From Oligoflexia bacterium (GTDB lineage: Bacteria > Bdellovibrionota > UBA1018), in contig JAYTHP010000093.1 in assembly GCA_043732485.1 (NCBI GenBank), forward strand, positions 1 through 14,488: DNA of 14,488 bases, read 5' to 3'. How positions within the stretch are numbered: the stretch's first letter is position 1; each line of letters starts with the position of its first letter. This document shows positions 4,673 to 14,384 of the stretch, piece by piece. The notes beneath the pieces are model-generated. The model made no database searches and was not told where the DNA came from. It saw nothing but the letters and a program-made list of their open reading frames with translations. The translations under genes were made by a program, and so were the position numbers.

Positions 4673-5680
4673 ATGCAAGCAAGACAACCTGCCGAATGGC
4701 AACCACATCAGACTTGTTGGACTGCCTGGCCCAGCCGCGAGGACCTTTGGGGTGAGAATCTGCCCCGGGTGCAAGCAGAAATGGTGCAGTTTTGCCAAGC
4801 CATTGCGGAGTCCGAGCCTGTGAGCCTCCTCGTGCAATCGCCGGAGGCTGCAACAGTCGCAAGAGAGCGGCTTGCAGGTCTTGACATTAGCTATTACGTT
4901 GAGCCTTTTGGCGATATCTGGATTCGCGATACCGGACCCATTTTCTTGCAAGTCACCTCACAAGTCGGCGCAGTGCAAACCCATGCCGCCCGGTTCTCCT
5001 TCAATGGTTGGGGAGAAAAGTATCTTTTCCCTGAAGACCTTGATCTTGCGGAGCGGATTGCTCATCGGAGTGGCGCGCAGGTCCTGGCGTTTCCTTGGGT
5101 TTTAGAAGGTGGATCGCTAGAAGTTGATGGCCAAGGAATGGCGATCACTACGGAAGAGTGTCTGTTGAACCCTAATCGCAACCGGGATTGTAGCCGGGAG
5201 ACGATTGAAGGGTATTTGCGAGAGCTTGGGATTGCAAAGGTGATCTGGCTGCGCAAGGGGCTAGCCAATGATCACACCGACGGCCATATTGATAATCTAG
5301 CACGGTTTGTGGCCCCGGGCGTGGTGTTGTGTATGCGAAGTGCGTCTCGTTCTGACCCCAATAGCGCGGTGCTCAGTGAAATTGAGGATCGCTTAAAAAG
5401 CGCACGGGATCAGCAAGGAAAAGCTTTGCAGGTCATGACGATCTCCTCGCCAGGTGAGGTCGTTGATGATCAAGGCAGGCTGATGCCTGCCAGTTATATG
5501 AACTTTTATATTGCCAACGCGGCAGTCGTGGTGCCGCAGTTTGGTGTCAGTTCGGACCAGCCAGCGCTTGCATTGATTCAAAGTTGTTTTCCTAAGCGAC
5601 GCGTGGTGGGTGTCTCGGCCTTAGGTCTTTTAACCGGTGGAGGAGCTTTTCATTGTATCACCCAACAGCAACCCCTGTAA
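4673..5680 (+). CDS. aguA: Agmatine deiminase (PAD_porph family)
   Basis: PAEWQPH, DIWIRDTGP, FNGWGEKY, LEGGSLEVDGQG, DHTDGHIDN, ASYMNF and C-terminal GGGAFHCITQQQP with the catalytic Cys. Confidence 0.96.
   Translation: MQARQPAEWQPHQTCWTAWPSREDLWGENLPRVQAEMVQFCQAIAESEPVSLLVQSPEAATVARERLAGLDISYYVEPFGDIWIRDTGPIFLQVTSQVGAVQTHAARFSFNGWGEKYLFPEDLDLAERIAHRSGAQVLAFPWVLEGGSLEVDGQGMAITTEECLLNPNRNRDCSRETIEGYLRELGIAKVIWLRKGLANDHTDGHIDNLARFVAPGVVLCMRSASRSDPNSAVLSEIEDRLKSARDQQGKALQVMTISSPGEVVDDQGRLMPASYMNFYIANAAVVVPQFGVSSDQPALALIQSCFPKRRVVGVSALGLLTGGGAFHCITQQQPL
5641..5645 (+). promoter_or_regulatory. Shine-Dalgarno site (AGGAG) for the aguB TTG start
   Basis: GGAGGAG at 5639-5645 ends 7 nt before the in-frame TTG at 5653. 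Confidence 0.5.
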
Positions 5681-6528
5681 GAAAAATCACAGCGGCGGTT
5701 TTACAAAGCGCTTTTTCGCAAGACACCGCGGCAAACGTACGGCGGATGGAGCGCGCGGTCCGTGACGCGGCTCAGCAAGGCGCGCAGCTGATTCTCATGC
5801 CTGAGCTTTTTGAAACTTGGTATTTTTGCCAGGAAGAAAAACAGCAGTATTTTGCTCTTGCGCATCCGGTGGAAGGGCATCCGACGCTGTTGCATTTTCA
5901 AAAGCTTGCCAAAGAGTTAGCGGTGGTCTTGCCGGTGTCTTTTTTTGAGAAGGCTGGACCCGTCTATTATAACAGCTGCGGGATGATTGACGCAGATGGC
6001 ACGCTCTTGGGGGTTTACCGCAAGAGCCACATTCCGGATGGTCCAGGGTACGAGGAAAAGTTTTATTTTAGGCCAGGGAATACCGGCTTTAAGGTCTGGA
6101 AGACGAAAATTGGCAACCTAGGTGTTGGGATTTGCTGGGATCAGTGGTTTCCAGAGTGTGCCAGGGCGCTTGCCTTGCAAGGAGCAGAATTGTTACTTTA
6201 CCCGACGGCCATTGGGTCAGAGCCTAATGGGCTAGATACCGGACTTGATACAAAAGACCCGTGGCAACGAGTGATGATCGGTCATGCGGTGGCCAATATG
6301 ATCCCGGTGCTTGCCGCCAATCGCGTTGGGCAAGAGGGTACGCAAAGCTTTTATGGGCACTCCTTTCTGGTCAATCACTTAGGCGAAAAGCAGGCGGAGC
6401 TGAACCGGGAGGAGTCGGGAGTGGCGCTTGCTACCTTCGACTTGCAGAAAATTCAGCTCGACCGCGCGGCCTTTGGGTTCTTTCGCGACCGCAGGCCGGA
6501 GCTTTATCACGACCTCACCACTCCGTAA
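5653..6528 (+). CDS. aguB: N-carbamoylputrescine amidase (nitrilase family)
   Basis: Nitrilase triad Glu (LMPELF), Lys (YRKSHIPDGPGYEEKFYFRPG) and Cys (ICWDQWFPE), plus YPTAIGSEP and FFRDRRPELY. It is adjacent to aguA. The start codon is uncertain. Confidence 0.96.
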   Translation: MYHPTATPVRKITAAVLQSAFSQDTAANVRRMERAVRDAAQQGAQLILMPELFETWYFCQEEKQQYFALAHPVEGHPTLLHFQKLAKELAVVLPVSFFEKAGPVYYNSCGMIDADGTLLGVYRKSHIPDGPGYEEKFYFRPGNTGFKVWKTKIGNLGVGICWDQWFPECARALALQGAELLLYPTAIGSEPNGLDTGLDTKDPWQRVMIGHAVANMIPVLAANRVGQEGTQSFYGHSFLVNHLGEKQAELNREESGVALATFDLQKIQLDRAAFGFFRDRRPELYHDLTTP

Positions 6529-8829: not shown

Positions 8830-8914
8830 TGGTGCGGTCGGACGGATTTGAACCGTCACACCTTTCGGCATACGCCCCTCAAGCGTACGTGTCTACCAAT
8901 TTCACCACGACCGC
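8830..8914 (-). tRNA. tRNA-Leu (anticodon GAG), 85 nt, encoded CCA
   Basis: Minus strand GCGGTCGTGGTGAAATTGGTAGACACGTACGCTTGAGGGGCGTATGCCGAAAGGTGTGACGGTTCAAATCCGTCCGACCGCACCA. Acceptor stem GCGGTCG/CGACCGC, anticodon stem TACGC/GCGTA, long variable arm and TTCAAAT T-loop. Confidence 0.98.
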
Positions 8915-9172: not shown

Positions 9173-10258
9173 ATGGCGCCCAACCTTAACTCGTTGAGAC
9201 TGCTTATGGTTTTATCCTGCTTGAGTTTTTTAAAAACTTTAAACTAATTTAATACCGTTGGTTTGTCATTTGCCAACAGTCCTTTAAAGAGTAAGATTTC
9301 TCAGGATTTTAAAGAGTTAACCGTTTTCAATGGAAAGCTGAGTCAAAAAAAGACTCAAAACGAAATTGCGCTCCATGAAAAAGAAGAAGAACAATTCGGA
9401 TGTCAGTCTTTTACGCATGAGTTGAGGTGGGGGACGAGGCAATTTTACCGGCTAAATGACACGTCGAGGGTTCTTGCCCCCCTCCTAGAACGTGTTCGGA
9501 CCTCTAAAGATCAGGCAGTGTTGAGCAATACGGCTGCTGCGGATACCCACGCTCAGGCTGCTGAATTTTTTAAAAATTTTAAAATCAAGCACGCTGATCA
9601 CTCTCCCCTTGCAGCTGAGGAGTTTGAGCAAAAGCAGTATCATGAAGGAAATTTAAAAAAATTATCGTTACAAGCCATTCAAGATAGTAAGCTTGCTGAG
9701 GCAAATCAAAGCGAGGCCTCAAAGCATATTATTGGCAATGCTCTTGACGCAGACAATCTTTTCGTCAGACTGAAGAAGAAAGTCAACTATGTTACTAGTA
9801 AATTATATTCTTCAGGCGGAAACTTAAACGAGAGTAACAATCAGTACGAAATGCAGCTCCATGAAAAAGAATCAAAAAAATTCAACACCCGAGCTCACGT
9901 TCATAGCGCCCTGTGGGAAGGCGCTTGGTTCGAAAGAAGCAATCTTGACGCAAAAGTTCCTACTGAGCCCAAGCAAAATAGCTTGCGATCGAGAGATTTA
10001 GCCGAGAAAAGCAACAAGTTGGCTGCTCAATCCCATCTTGAGGCTGCCGGCCTTGCTCTCGGATTTAAAAAAAAGTACCCTCATAATGCTCCGATGAGTG
10101 CTGAAGATCTTGAGAAAAAGAAGACCTCCGAAGAAAAAGAAAAAACTTTATCATGGCAAGCAACTCAAAATACCCATAGTGCGGACGACGATCTCAGCAA
10201 AGCTGATAAGTATATTTGGCTGAAGATCAATGATATAAAAGCAGGATCCGTGAAGTGA
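9173..10258 (+). CDS. Hypothetical alpha-helical protein with two tandem 162-aa repeats; the N-terminal signal peptide is interrupted by an in-frame stop (possible pseudogene)
   Basis: ORF 9263-10258 aligns to itself without gaps at a 162-aa offset. The same frame extends upstream to ATG 9173: MAPNLNSLRLLMVLSCLSFLKTLN*FNTVGLSFANS, with TAA at 9245-9247. Confidence 0.7.
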
Positions 10259-10351: not shown

Positions 10352-11191
10352 CTAGTGCTCAAATCTCACCCCAAAGTAAAACGAATAGCCTGTGATTGCA
10401 GTATAGGAAACGCTGCCTTGCAGACCCTTCATCTCGGCAATGAGATAGGTTCTCAAGATTTTGCTGTTGAGATAGAAGTGACTGGCCGAGTTTTGGTCAA
10501 TGCCATTGAGCAACAGCCAAAGACCCACTGACGGTCCGCGCAAAACTGACCAGGCATTTTGATCTTTGAAAAGCGTGCGCAGCAGTTCGTACTGATAGGC
10601 AACCGTGGGCACCAAAATCTGCTCGCGAAAAAACCGTGCCTGATAGCGAATCGAAATGCCGGTGGAGACGATCGTAAGTAAACTATCGTTGCCTCCAAAA
10701 TAGGGATACACGTGCAACGAGCCACCAAGCGAGAAGACGCCAAAAGGCTGCAAAAAGGCTGGCTGATATTCAGCAAGCGCACCGAAGGCGATGGCTTGAT
10801 TGTTGTTTTGGGAGGGGTGGAGTGCTTGACCGCCAAACGATTGTAAGCTTGACTCGATTTGCCACCCCCACTCGGGACGAAGCAGTTGATAGCTTGCTCC
10901 CCGCTCTTTTGGTACGCCCCTGGGCGGTGCAACGGCAAGAGAAGAGACAGGCTGAGAAAGCAAAGAAGGCGGTGTTGTCGTGACCGGCGACGGCGAGGAA
11001 ACGGGCAAAGGGTGAGCATCGATAGCCGTAGCTTCTTCACTCGAAGCGGGGGTAAGCGGGTCATCTGCGTAAGTAGGTGTGAGGAGCAACAGGCATGCGT
11101 GGCCACCTAACGCGAGGACAGAAGCAAAGACTGCTGCGGCCCGAGTTTTGCCTGCTTTTGCAGTCTGATTGAAGACTTTTGGCTTGTTCAT
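10352..11191 (-). CDS. Secreted hypothetical protein, probable outer-membrane beta-barrel with an N-terminal Ser/Thr/Pro-rich linker
   Basis: Signal-peptide-like KTRAAAVFASVLALGGHACLLLLTPTYA-DD, linker PLPVSSPSPVTTTPPSLLSQPVSS, alternating aromatic strands (ISIRYQARFF, VAYQYE) and a C-terminal beta-signal-like YSFYFGVRFEH. The start is ATG 11191 or 11215. Confidence 0.7.
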   Translation of the reverse strand: MNKPKVFNQTAKAGKTRAAAVFASVLALGGHACLLLLTPTYADDPLTPASSEEATAIDAHPLPVSSPSPVTTTPPSLLSQPVSSLAVAPPRGVPKERGASYQLLRPEWGWQIESSLQSFGGQALHPSQNNNQAIAFGALAEYQPAFLQPFGVFSLGGSLHVYPYFGGNDSLLTIVSTGISIRYQARFFREQILVPTVAYQYELLRTLFKDQNAWSVLRGPSVGLWLLLNGIDQNSASHFYLNSKILRTYLIAEMKGLQGSVSYTAITGYSFYFGVRFEH

Positions 11192-11195
11192 TTGC

Positions 11196-11237
11196 TTTTC
11201 GTCATCTTCTTTCATCCTTTTTTTTCGTCATCTTCTT
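11196..11237. repeat. Perfect 16-bp direct repeat TTTTCGTCATCTTCTT x2
   Basis: Copies at 11196-11211 and 11222-11237 (26-bp period) at the 5' end of the minus-strand barrel gene. Confidence 0.85.
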
Positions 11238-11497
11238 GGAATCAGACGCATTTTTAACCTACGGTGCGCACTGCTCACCACCACCACCGACGACGAGCAA
11301 GCCTACGGGAGCGAGGCTGCTTGAAGCCTTACTTTCCTTCATCCTACGATAGAATCGAAAAAATCTGGACTTTTTTTTAAGAGCGCGTAACAAAACCATT
11401 GCTGCTTGCGCCTCTCTAATCGTGTTAGGGTTTTCAAAAAGTCTTAGGTTTGCTAGCAACACAAGCCTCGAAGAATAGAAAAACTTTAAGGAAAGGT

Positions 11498-12445
11498 ATG
11501 ATGGAAGCGCCTCATCACGAGAAGCACGATCCGAAGCAAGAAGTCTCGTTCTCCCGGGCCTTAAAACTCTTTTTAGGTCATTTGGCGGCCGCGGGGAAAG
11601 CCAACCACACGCTGCAGAGCTATCAGCTTGATTTGCAGTCTTTTGATCATTTTTTGCAGTCCCAGTACGGTAAAAATCTCCCTAATCTCAAGCAGTTACC
11701 TCCCAGCGATTTTGCAGCGTTTCGACAAGCGCTGATCGCCCAGGGCTTAAAGACCAATACCCGCAGACGCAAATTACTGACGCTCACCCAGTTCCTCAAA
11801 TACATTGCGTTGCGGCTGGAGGGCGCACCCGAGTTGGCACAAAAAAGAGCCGTTCCCTATAAACTGGAAAGAGTCCCTTTTACCGTTCCGCTGCCACCCT
11901 TGATCGCTCAGCTCACGGGACTTCCTACCGCCTCGCTCTTAGAAAATCGCAATCGCTTGCTGTTATGGACCATGGCTGAGAGTGGTTGCTTGGTGAGTGA
12001 GCTGCCCGAGGTCCGCTTTCAAGACTGGAGCCTGGATGCCACCGGGCAATGGAATCTACATTTTGCTGGCAAAAACCTGAGAAACGTGGCTGTTTCTCAA
12101 CCTTTGAGCCGAGCGGTTCGTGAGTTTGAAGCAACCGCCCGGGACGCTTCTTGGATCTTTTTTGGCTTTAATCGCTTTGGATCCTTAGGTTCACCGATCA
12201 GCGTGCGGGGGATCGAACTGATGGTGCGCCATTACTCCCTAGTGCTCAACATTCCGCAGCTGACCGCAAGGACCATTCGCCACTCAGTCATCTTGCATTG
12301 GCTGCAAGAGGGCGTGCCGGAAAAAGAGATCATGCAGCGTCTAGGTCTCAAGTCAACCTATGCCTTTCGCTCTTATCAATCCTTACTCAGCAAACCTGAA
12401 GCAGCGCCTGATTCTAGCGAGGCTGCGACCCTTGATTTGCTTTAA
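11498..12445 (+). CDS. XerC/XerD-like tyrosine recombinase family protein with non-canonical active site
   Basis: N-terminal SAM-like domain (ANHTLQSYQLDLQSF; LKTNTRRRKLLTLTQFLKY), box I RNRLLLWTMAESGCLVSEL and box II LTARTIRHSVILHWLQEG...IMQRLGLKSTYAFRSY. ATG 11498/11501 follows AAGGAAAGG. Confidence 0.9.
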   Translation: MMEAPHHEKHDPKQEVSFSRALKLFLGHLAAAGKANHTLQSYQLDLQSFDHFLQSQYGKNLPNLKQLPPSDFAAFRQALIAQGLKTNTRRRKLLTLTQFLKYIALRLEGAPELAQKRAVPYKLERVPFTVPLPPLIAQLTGLPTASLLENRNRLLLWTMAESGCLVSELPEVRFQDWSLDATGQWNLHFAGKNLRNVAVSQPLSRAVREFEATARDASWIFFGFNRFGSLGSPISVRGIELMVRHYSLVLNIPQLTARTIRHSVILHWLQEGVPEKEIMQRLGLKSTYAFRSYQSLLSKPEAAPDSSEAATLDLL

Positions 12446-13764
12446 ACCCAGCTCTTAAACCACATCCAGGCACGAAAGCTCAGGGTGGGGATCTTCAGGC
12501 CTGCTAGGATCGGGAAGAAATACAAGAAGAGCAGGAAAACGCCTGAAAAGTAGACCCACTTCAGCCAAGCACGGTACTTCCCGCCTTTCAGCTCGTCGTA
12601 ATGAAAGATGTAGGCCAGCGCAAAGCTGAGTAACATCCCAGAGGGGTAGTAATAATAGTAAAACAGAATTTTTCGCGGGATAAAGTACCAGCAAACGTAG
12701 CAGATCAGATAGAAGTAGCAGATGAACAAGGCGTTCATTCGTTGCGTGCGGATACCATCCCAGAAGCAGGCAATCAGCGCCAAAAGCCCGCTCCACATGA
12801 TCAGCGGGTTGCCAAGCAACAACACCCCGCGGACAAAGGCATCATTCGTCGGCTCCCGCTCAAAGGCATACCAAATCGGTCGCCCTAGAAGGGGCCAATC
12901 CAGCCACTGACTCATATAGGGGTGGGAGCTCACCACTCTGAGCTGGTCGCTCCACATCCGTTTTTGCATGAGAACCACCACGCTATAGAACGAGCACGGC
13001 ACGTCTTTTAAGAAACAGTAGGGGATAAACGTCAGATAGTAGAACACCACCGGTACCAGGAAAAGAAGCACAAAAAACTCAAGCATGCTGACTTTTTTCC
13101 AAAGATTTTTCCGGTACCAAGCCTCTTGTGGCAAATGGGTGGGCGGGTGACTGGAGATTTGAAAATCCACCGTTTGTAAAACTTTCACTAGCACCACCCA
13201 ACCTAAGCACCCGAACCAGGGAATGAGCGAAAACCATTTACAAGCCATAGCGAGCCCAAAACAAGCGCCTGCAAAAAACAGCAGCCGGAGGGATTGTGGG
13301 CGCGTCCAGCGCGGGGCCCAGGTGGTCGTAAAGGCGGTGAGCCCCCAGATCAGGAAGCAAAACATGAAGGTGTCGAGCATCCCAATCCGGGCTTGGACGT
13401 AAAGCAGCTGATTAAAAAGGGTAATCAGCGCAATCCAAAGCGCAGTGCTTTGCTTACCAAACAAAACCCAGCCCATAAGATACATGCCAACCAGGGTCAG
13501 TGCGCCAAAAACGGTGCTCATCAGGCGCCAGCCAAACGGCCTGTCGCCGCCGACTGCCACCCCGACGGTCATCAGTAACTTGCCGAGTGGGGGATGCTCC
13601 CAGTTTTTTGGCTCTTCGCGCTCAAGCAAGCGGCGAACCACCGGAATATAATGAGCTTCATCAAAGCTGTATTTGAGGGGAAACTGGACATAGATCAGGA
13701 AAAAAAGTTGACTCAGTCCGTATAAAATAAAAGAAGTGATCCAAATTTGACGTCGCACAGCCAT
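12442..13764 (-). CDS. Phospholipid-carrier-dependent glycosyltransferase, PMT / protein O-mannosyltransferase family (GT39-like)
   Basis: FDEAHY (DE motif), EHPPLGKLL, FGWRLMS, ARIGMLD, ACKW, HPYMSQWLDWPLLGRPIWY, GNPLIMW and LFYYYYYP, with many TM segments. Confidence 0.9.
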   Translation of the reverse strand: MAVRRQIWITSFILYGLSQLFFLIYVQFPLKYSFDEAHYIPVVRRLLEREEPKNWEHPPLGKLLMTVGVAVGGDRPFGWRLMSTVFGALTLVGMYLMGWVLFGKQSTALWIALITLFNQLLYVQARIGMLDTFMFCFLIWGLTAFTTTWAPRWTRPQSLRLLFFAGACFGLAMACKWFSLIPWFGCLGWVVLVKVLQTVDFQISSHPPTHLPQEAWYRKNLWKKVSMLEFFVLLFLVPVVFYYLTFIPYCFLKDVPCSFYSVVVLMQKRMWSDQLRVVSSHPYMSQWLDWPLLGRPIWYAFEREPTNDAFVRGVLLLGNPLIMWSGLLALIACFWDGIRTQRMNALFICYFYLICYVCWYFIPRKILFYYYYYPSGMLLSFALAYIFHYDELKGGKYRAWLKWVYFSGVFLLFLYFFPILAGLKIPTLSFRAWMWFKSWV

Positions 13765-13800: not shown

Positions 13801-13847
13801 GGAAACATTTGATAAAACTTGAGAAATTCGCTATTTGTAAAGAATCT

Positions 13848-14384
13848 ATGATTGCCAAAAATGACCCTTGTTCCTGTGGTAGCCGTAAAAAATACAAACG
13901 CTGTTGTGGAGCAGAAGAAAAGCCACTTGCTGCCCCGCAAACCCCTGCGATGGGGGGATTTGACCCGTCGCAGTTTGATCCCTCGCGTCTGGATCCTGAC
14001 ATGATGCAGCAAATGCAAAAAGCCATTAAGCGATTGCCCCGGGGGCAAGTGATGCAAATGCAAAACCTGATGCAAAAAGCTATGCGCGGTGAGGACATTG
14101 CTTCGGTGGCTGACCAGTTTGAAAAGACTTTGCCCGCTGATTTTCAAGAATTGATGCGCGGTTTGGCTTTTCAAGCGGCGGCGCAACAAGCGGAGGTCCC
14201 TGCTGCACCCGTGCCGACTCAAGAAGAGATGGATCTTGAAGAGGCCCGTCAGGTGGTGGCGGCTGCAATGGAAGCGGGATCGTTATCGCGCACGGAAGGC
14301 GAAGAGCTGCTGCAAAGCAAGGAGCCGAATGCTCCGGCTGCAGCCAAAGCGCGTTCATGGCCCAAGTGGCTAGGAAAGAAATAA
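13848..14384 (+). CDS. SEC-C metal-binding motif protein with a Met/Gln-rich helical region
   Basis: ATG 13848 gives MIAKNDPCSCGSRKKYKRCCG (canonical SEC-C), then FDPSQFDPSRLDPDMMQQMQKAIKRLPRGQVMQMQNLMQKAM. Confidence 0.85.
   Translation: MIAKNDPCSCGSRKKYKRCCGAEEKPLAAPQTPAMGGFDPSQFDPSRLDPDMMQQMQKAIKRLPRGQVMQMQNLMQKAMRGEDIASVADQFEKTLPADFQELMRGLAFQAAAQQAEVPAAPVPTQEEMDLEEARQVVAAAMEAGSLSRTEGEELLQSKEPNAPAAAKARSWPKWLGKK

Follow-up and report, generated by a model that had tools for sequence, protein, structure and literature searches.

An uninterrupted gene for a Xer-like protein, found in a genome of an Oligoflexia bacterium (Bdellovibrionota), belongs to an old, conserved and apparently undescribed family that lacks the normal catalytic residues of tyrosine recombinases. 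Its members have lost the residues Arg I, His II and His III and are not constrained at the nucleophile position. The gene is inherited vertically under purifying selection, and it persists in genomes where XerCD and dif are not found. The window, i.e., the whole stretch of DNA that was analysed, is 14,488 nucleotides long (contig JAYTHP010000093.1 of assembly GCA_043732485.1). As judged from sequence, the protein is probably dead rather than rewired. The explanation that we favour, at about even confidence, is that it may act as a non-cleaving, sequence-specific DNA clamp on a chromosomal site of its own, helping to handle the chromosome independently of XerC/XerD. No description of the family was found in the literature searched, subscription papers lying outside its coverage, and the main text of PMC8138268 names neither Bdellovibrio nor inactive groups.

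The gene, its fold and its family

The open reading frame encodes 315 amino acids from an ATG that is directly preceded by a Shine-Dalgarno-like run; an alternative in-frame TTG start at position 11450 would extend the product to 331 amino acids. Both PF02899 and PF00589 matches are above the Pfam cut-offs, as expected of the tyrosine recombinase fold, and the AlphaFold2 model of the protein (pLDDT 91.3) was matched by Foldseek to Cre/Tre, XerA and XerH at E values of about 1e-10. The initial annotation of this DNA had described a full-length frame with replaced catalytic residues, and this was borne out, all six codons that it named being correct (Table 1). Alignment of the family profile to XerD (1a0p) and XerA (4a8e, 5hxy) confirmed the register, with boxes I and II unambiguous. 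In the window's clade, conservation stops near residue 297 and is followed by a variable, low-confidence tail, and the C-terminal helix that serves the cyclic synaptic swap in XerC/XerD is missing. The tail of Bacteriovoracaceae members is longer and different.

Table 1. Features of the window around the degenerate Xer-like gene
Feature	Position	Strand	Evidence and remarks
Degenerate Xer-like tyrosine recombinase gene (P0001, 315 aa)	11498..12445	+	ORF, Pfam, NCBIfam, homologues
Core-binding (SAM-like) domain, residues 23-103	11564..11806	+	PF02899, E 1.4e-9
N87-T-R-R-R-K92 on helix D, predicted DNA-reading helix	11756..11773	+	Conservation; helix 86-106 in model
Degenerate catalytic domain, residues 148-294	11939..12379	+	PF00589, E 1.7e-8
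L165, Arg I position	11990..11992	+	Codon TTG
K192, catalytic Lys position, loop two residues short	12071..12073	+	Codon AAA; alignment to XerD
R237-G-x-E240 on helix J, predicted DNA-contacting helix	12206..12217	+	R237 184/184, E240 183/184
R258, His II position	12269..12271	+	Codon AGG
R261 (Arg II), sole pentad residue kept family-wide	12278..12280	+	Codon CGC
L284, His/Trp III position	12347..12349	+	Codon CTC
Y288, family-specific tyrosine, five residues ahead of canonical Tyr	12359..12361	+	Conservation
Y293, canonical nucleophile position, not conserved in family	12374..12376	+	Codon TAT
Protein O-mannosyltransferase-like (PMT) gene, convergent, 4-nt overlap	12442..13764	-	Pfam; within 2.5 kb in 33/40 loci
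SEC-C motif protein, syntenic neighbour	13809..14384	+	Pfam, gene order
BtpA-family gene, likely 5' end; remainder on contig C89	14386..14488	+	Gene order of relatives
Divergent upstream gene, no Pfam match, conserved in block	10352..11215	-	Pfam, gene order
tRNA-Leu(GAG), conserved block marker	8830..8914	-	tRNA, relatives

Among 3129 candidates, 140 relatives were retrieved at E ≤ 1e-10, the best 120 of which show 38–52% identity; the taxon names of homologues among the matches listed are Bdellovibrionota, Bdellovibrionia and Oligoflexia. For the phylum survey, an 84-row profile was run against 300 other genomes, each at least 85% complete, and membership was set at E ≤ 1e-48, weaker matches being XerC/D cross-matches in the ten genomes checked. 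By this measure, 56 of the 75 genomes sampled from the window's class carry the gene, among them 36 of 39 from the window's own family, and so do 73 of 74 genomes of family f22. We take f22 as Bacteriovoracaceae, since named Halobacteriovorax/Bacteriovoracaceae records are 59–87% identical to an f22 protein. The gene is also found in G257, whose genome of 0.9 Mb contains a single further PF00589 match. A family-level match is absent from f10 (0/12) and from 150 other phylum genomes surveyed, and the job of the gene is therefore dispensable or replaceable. A further degenerate group, with proteins named Oligoflexus and Pseudobacteriovorax (Pseudobacteriovorax antillogorgiicola), joins the family with an SH-aLRT of 95.8 in a fast 61-sequence tree, where long-branch attraction is possible, and with 100% probability by hhalign.

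The distribution of the family tracks host lineages, i.e., inheritance is vertical. Nei-Gojobori dN/dS values of 0.025, 0.042 and 0.060 were obtained for the three closest pairs among 59 coding sequences, all of them f22 pairs and none from the window's clade, while many other pairs were saturated. Since dN/dS is 0.03–0.06, the gene is not decaying, and the initial annotation, which had preferred repurposing to decay and proposed low dN/dS as a check, was right in this respect. The synteny with the PMT gene that it had pointed to is likewise kept in most loci (Table 1). A recombinase of a mobile element (phage integrase, RIT trio or TnsF) was rejected on account of the conserved core-gene block, the lineage-following distribution and the GC content of the gene, which is 0.52 compared with 0.54 for the genome; an active island at tRNA-Leu was rejected because the intervening genes are conserved core genes.

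Two further groups of proteins were noted. P0219, P0222 and P0254 form a sister group whose residues are intermediate between those of XerD-like proteins and those of the degenerate family: Arg I is R/K, His II is Q, His III is H/F and the nucleophile is Y/L. P0229, P0230, P0234, P0235 and P0249 are distant matches of about 600–650 amino acids with two recombinase-like stretches each (tandem fusions).

Catalytic positions, DNA-facing residues and binding-site searches

Residues were counted in 184 of 265 proteins (those with at least 170 bits and 270–420 amino acids), in 120 Oligoflexia proteins out of 157 Oligoflexia-type matches and in 17 Bacteriovoracaceae (f22) loci. The catalytic set of the window protein is L-K-R-R-L and not the R-K-H-R-H/W of active enzymes. 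The eight commonest residues at Arg I (165) among the 184 proteins are L117, Q38, T7, A6, R5, S5, N4 and F1, the five arginines being scattered tips; lysine occupies this position in 15 of 17 Bacteriovoracaceae loci and in 120/120 Oligoflexia proteins. His II (258) is R171 and K11 of 184, lysine in all 17 Bacteriovoracaceae loci and glutamate in all 120 Oligoflexia proteins, and His III (284) is leucine in 177/184 and 120/120 and V/L in 17/17, respectively for the family set, Oligoflexia and Bacteriovoracaceae. Arg II (261) is kept in 182/184, 17/17 and 120/120. The best 120 of the 140 homologues, query included, show the same replacements (L83, Q31, S3, R2 and T1 at 165; R116 and K4 at 258; R120 at 261; L120 at 284), which rules out the sequence error or strain-specific decay that the initial annotation had named as its refutation. 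No canonical pentad is present among the 26 patterns of the 184 members; the clade patterns are K-K-R-V/L-Y in f22 (17 loci) and K-E-R-L-H in Oligoflexia.

The nucleophile tyrosine had been described as kept, which is true of the window protein but not of the family: position 293 is Y93, F25 and L2 among the 120 matches listed and Y144, F34, L4, W1 and one gap in the larger set, where the non-tyrosine residues (39/184) correspond to about 31 separate changes by parsimony. It is H118 and Y2 of the 120 Oligoflexia proteins and tyrosine in all 17 Bacteriovoracaceae loci. Table 1 of PMC2943603 gives a tyrosine nucleophile for 99.6% of tyrosine recombinases. The lysine of the GK motif, also claimed earlier, is indeed present, but in a loop that reads GK-x-x-R instead of the GKGNKER of XerD, and position 192 is lysine in only 150/184 members of the wider family. 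Tyrosine 288 is found in 175/184 proteins and in 16/17 Bacteriovoracaceae loci, and glycine takes its place in 120/120 Oligoflexia proteins.

Saturation mutagenesis of Cre found five substitutions at His II (D, E, K, R and W) to be the only ones that abolish recombination in vivo, and three of these, R, K and E, are the residues present in the three clades; at Arg I, either Lys (in vivo only) or His retains activity, others such as Ala being inactive (PMC2943603). On the strength of these results, carried over from a distant protein, and of the free nucleophile position, we infer that members of the family do not cleave DNA. Bacteriovoracaceae members, where Tyr293 and a Lys at Arg I are present, may have residual activity.

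The predicted DNA-facing residues are stricter than every catalytic residue except Arg II. N87, R90 and R91 are invariant (184/184 each), as is R237, and in Oligoflexia positions 87, 90 and 91 are N in 119, R in 120 and R in 120 of 120 proteins. The helix D residues of this protein family differ from those of XerC/D. For XerH, it was reported that N-terminal helices give most base contacts and that the C-terminal helix builds the tetramer (PMC5241119).

Searches for a cognate site were made in several ways. Gapped palindromes in the window's own genome were mostly repeated insertion-sequence-like ends, and no binding site was identified among them; several such ends recur at contig ends. The palindrome GTCAA-N4-TTGAC occurs 20 times in this genome versus about 3 expected and has one match in the other loci; it is possibly a site of a lineage-specific regulator. 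Gibbs sampling upstream of 53 genes produced no motif clearly above shuffled controls, and non-coding footprinting recovered dif and tRNA-Leu and no other shared site. No dif-type site like those of XerS, XerH and XerL was seen adjoining the gene, and a promoter scan of positions 11150-11560 returned no promoters. Near the gene in G257 there is an 11-base match to a XerD arm, which by a rough estimate is a chance occurrence in this AT-rich genome and was discounted. A -10-like box (TAnnnT) is located 4–10 nt before an in-frame start in 31 of 58 members, a count made with no control, and suggests leaderless transcripts. TGTCAA, the reverse of TTGACA, was seen by eye in the first codons of several members and is possibly the -35 element of a divergent livK promoter.

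Gene neighbourhood, XerC/XerD and dif

In the window's class, the gene is part of a block that consists of tRNA-Leu(GAG), an unknown gene, often livKHMGF, the degenerate gene, PMT, SEC-C, BtpA and an intact recombinase; in relatives, livKHMGF is often placed between the counterpart of the 10352..11215 gene and the degenerate gene. In f22, the gene is divergent from rnc-era-der. Since the BtpA gene is split across both contig ends, contig C89 likely follows the window's contig (C93), a join inferred from the gene order of relatives, with no sequence overlap. After BtpA, C89 encodes an intact R-K-H-R-W-Y recombinase (L073), about 3 kb beyond the end of the window's contig. Such a recombinase (R-K-H-R-W/H-Y) is found within 5 kb of the degenerate gene in 24 of 40 loci, usually at 3–5 kb. 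The window's own family has 24 genomes with both genes, 12 with the degenerate gene only, 1 with the partner only and 2 with neither; 15 genomes of the class keep the degenerate gene with no neighbouring recombinase, and 50 genomes of four other families have the intact partner and no degenerate gene.

Several observations concern the recombinase and the rest of the window. L073:637-2343 (G000:C89) and its orthologues form an intact recombinase family (HSxRAT ... Y[DN]KR) present in 170/301 phylum genomes. Recombinases of this type are often encoded close to dif: 0.3 kb from it in G220, 6 kb in G183 and 16 kb in G274 and G291, and 4–27 kb from the terminus recombinase in f22. A 331-aa frame at 9263-10258 (+), with a GC content of 0.42 and no Pfam/NCBIfam match, is located between tRNA-Leu(GAG) and the conserved block; it is absent from the neighbour clusters of 40 other loci and is possibly a recent insertion. 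At 4673-6528 (+), an agmatine deiminase-like gene is followed by a carbon-nitrogen hydrolase, an aguA-aguB-like pair.

With a XerC/D-level match defined as a match to the XerD model at E ≤ 1e-50, such matches were found in 1 of 74 f22 genomes, in 36 of 39 genomes of the window's family and in nearly all others. Neither XerC/D nor dif within two mismatches was found in the window's assembly (89% complete), and G021, G131 and G313 (95–97% complete) also gave no XerC/D match and no canonical dif match. Incompleteness is possible for any single genome of this kind; for the window's genome (G000), G021, G131 and G313, all of the window's family, it is nonetheless likely that the XerCD/dif system has really been lost. 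Because 73 of 74 Bacteriovoracaceae genomes and the window's assembly show no XerC/D, the gene is probably no XerC/D accessory, and a general role as partner or regulator of true XerC/D, one of the options raised by the initial annotation, is not supported. The co-occurrence with dif and a Xer partner that would be expected of XerC/XerD does not hold for this gene family.

The dif consensus of the class was matched in 31 of 76 genomes and resembles the published B. bacteriovorus dif site (PMC2731167); xerCD and dif are present in B. bacteriovorus (PMC8987985, PMC5357621, PMC11318664). Distances were taken in the 18 class genomes with both dif and the gene, one further match with no GATAA context having been dropped. 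The two share a contig in 11 of them, at 4–120 kb (median 10 kb), and lie on different contigs in the other 7. Among five f22 genomes, the gene and the dif-like site are separated by 0.34, 0.37, 0.40 and 0.43 Mb in four and by at least 1.0 Mb in the fifth. Given these f22 distances, the link to the terminus is not general and is perhaps a matter of ancestral gene order.

A separate observation was made in the five near-closed Bacteriovoracaceae genomes (G160, G068, G126, G187 and G235). All five encode an intact recombinase with a palindromic dif-like site (core TATAA-N6-TTAT) just upstream of its start; in G160 and G068 the recombinase gene maps to about 49% of the chromosome length, and the protein falls below the cut-off of all NCBIfam Xer models. 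Together they look like an undescribed single-recombinase system of the XerS/difSL type.

Possible roles and comparison with known systems

If the protein is a clamp that does not cut, helices B, D and J of its C-shaped fold would grip DNA as in XerH, Arg II would still hold the DNA backbone, and the invariant, family-specific N87 and R90 would direct it to a site different from dif. Proteins from the window's class would be unable to form the normal synaptic tetramer, since they lack the C-terminal swap helix. As for the job, weak indications favour a structural one, in the terminus region or during segregation, over a transcriptional one. By analogy, TnsF may serve as a precedent for site-specific binding by a dead tyrosine recombinase. 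The proposal of the initial annotation that the protein binds DNA or is architectural is the one of its options for a role that gained support. An extended version, which we hold as tentative and rather doubtful, would have an ancient pseudo-recombinase descend from the common ancestor of Bacteriovoracia, the window's class and Oligoflexia and become a dedicated chromosome-organising or cell-cycle factor, one that clamps a conserved near-terminus site of its own, makes no cut and is retained more strictly than XerCD. An important job on DNA is implied by the survival of the gene both where a whole family has lost XerCD and under extreme genome reduction.

Other explanations were weighed as well. 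A short gap usually separates the gene from a divergently oriented core operon (livKHMGF within 2.5 kb in 21/40 loci, rnc-era-der in 17/18 Bacteriovoracaceae/f35 loci), and the predicted DNA-reading helices are conserved. Together with the TGTCAA and TAnnnT elements, this would suit a dead recombinase turned transcription regulator that binds promoter operators, but the divergent neighbour is not the same between clades, and neither the Gibbs search nor footprinting, with dif and tRNA-Leu as its only shared sites, provided an operator; we consider this reading unlikely, though by no means negligible. It is improbable that the protein is a non-cutting subunit acting with the neighbouring dif-linked recombinase, in which case only a single strand pair would be exchanged and either replication or a resolvase would deal with the junction. 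Apart from the proximity described above, the partner recombinase is present in 71/74 Bacteriovoracaceae genomes, the two genes are the only PF00589 matches in G257 and, with the degenerate gene taken from the phylum survey, in G021, and both genes of family f2 occur in one and the same set of 4 of its 6 genomes. However, the degenerate gene retains its motifs in the 15 class genomes that have no partner match, loss of the partner is visible at the syntenic position in L041, L047, L049, L051 and L054, the partner occurs alone in f10 (5/12), f16 (14/14), f18 (29/29) and f27 (2/2), and no linkage between the two genes exists in Bacteriovoracaceae.

An enzyme with altered chemistry, in which R258 replaces Arg I and Y288 is the nucleophile, would be consistent with the conservation of Y288 in two clades, with the near-invariance of R261, with a basic residue at 258 in two clades and with the shifted arginine of CTnDOT integrase (PMC8138268). 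We give this little credence, and the rewired pentad of the initial annotation is disfavoured by the variation at the nucleophile position. At 288, all 120 Oligoflexia proteins have Gly, G257 has Glu and 8/184 members have S/H/F/W/N; Arg or Lys at His II abolishes recombination by Cre in vivo (PMC2943603); and in the model Y288 begins the helix that bears residue 293 five residues on and probably faces elsewhere. Hardly any credence goes to a non-cutting modulator of canonical XerC/XerD at dif, whether competitor or third subunit. The closeness to dif in 11/18 class genomes and the presence of XerC and XerD in most class genomes speak for it, and against it stand the Bacteriovoracaceae genomes that carry the gene with no XerC/D-level match (73/74), its presence in G000, G021, G131 and G313, where XerC/D and canonical dif were not found, and helix D residues unlike those of XerC/D. 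A decaying xer paralogue or a sequence error can practically be dismissed: long tree branches and low identity to XerC/D-level matches (21–28%) might suggest it, but hundreds of intact homologues with the same replacements have already refuted it, as do dN/dS values of at most 0.06 in the closest pairs and the conserved synteny. As to which Xer gave rise to the family, trees gave no clear parent.

If the extended version with its ancient chromosome factor is right, dead Xer proteins would represent a class of bacterial chromosome factors that recurs and has gone unrecognised. Databases label family members XerC, XerD or integrase, so that the whole family is mis-annotated. Since cultured genera carry the gene (Halobacteriovorax, Bacteriovoracaceae, and, from the sister group, Pseudobacteriovorax antillogorgiicola and Oligoflexus), knockout and ChIP-seq are within reach, and the family offers a clean system in which to study the role of conserved dead Xer-like proteins, streptococcal YnbA among them.

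Orthology with XerC/D was rejected, since the window protein scores far under the NCBIfam cut-offs (75.4 bits against 335 for TIGR02224, XerC, and 66.6 against 330 for TIGR02225, XerD) and the family forms a clade separate from the XerC and XerD held by the same genomes. The XerS model gave 17.7 bits against a cut-off of 267. With XerC/XerD (1a0p), XerA (4a8e, 5hxy) and XerH (5jk0), the family shares the two-domain fold, a single chromosomal copy and Arg II and, with XerC/XerD, proximity to dif in the window's class. Unlike all of these, it has no Arg I, His II or His III, its nucleophile position is free, and the terminal helix that contains HP is missing from the window protein. Streptococcal XerD-like proteins carry an L-Q-R-L replacement pattern. 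Membership in the streptococcal family (PRK02436) was rejected, the score being 24.9 bits with a cut-off of 178; only residues 244-293 of the window protein (50 residues) align to this model of 245 amino acids.

YnbA, of the PRK02436 family, is likewise a conserved chromosomal homologue without catalytic residues and the extreme C-terminus, outside a working Xer system. It lacks two tetrad residues and the C-terminus, is inactive on difSL and does not bind it, and in contrast to the family described here it is reportedly closer to phage integrases (PMC1914069). The streptococcal likeness therefore looks, from the sequences, convergent and of independent origin. TnsF of Tn6022 likewise derives from a tyrosine recombinase, is inactivated and binds DNA at a specific site (PMC10293859); it is transposon-borne and has zinc fingers, tandem core-binding domains and only a partial catalytic domain, whereas the window protein is encoded by a core gene of the chromosome and its catalytic fold is complete. 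The CTnDOT integrase subgroup shares the absence of Arg I from its canonical position, and CTnDOT integrase is active with a shifted substitute arginine (PMC8138268), but it has an arm-binding domain, and the family described here also replaces His II, His III and often the tyrosine.
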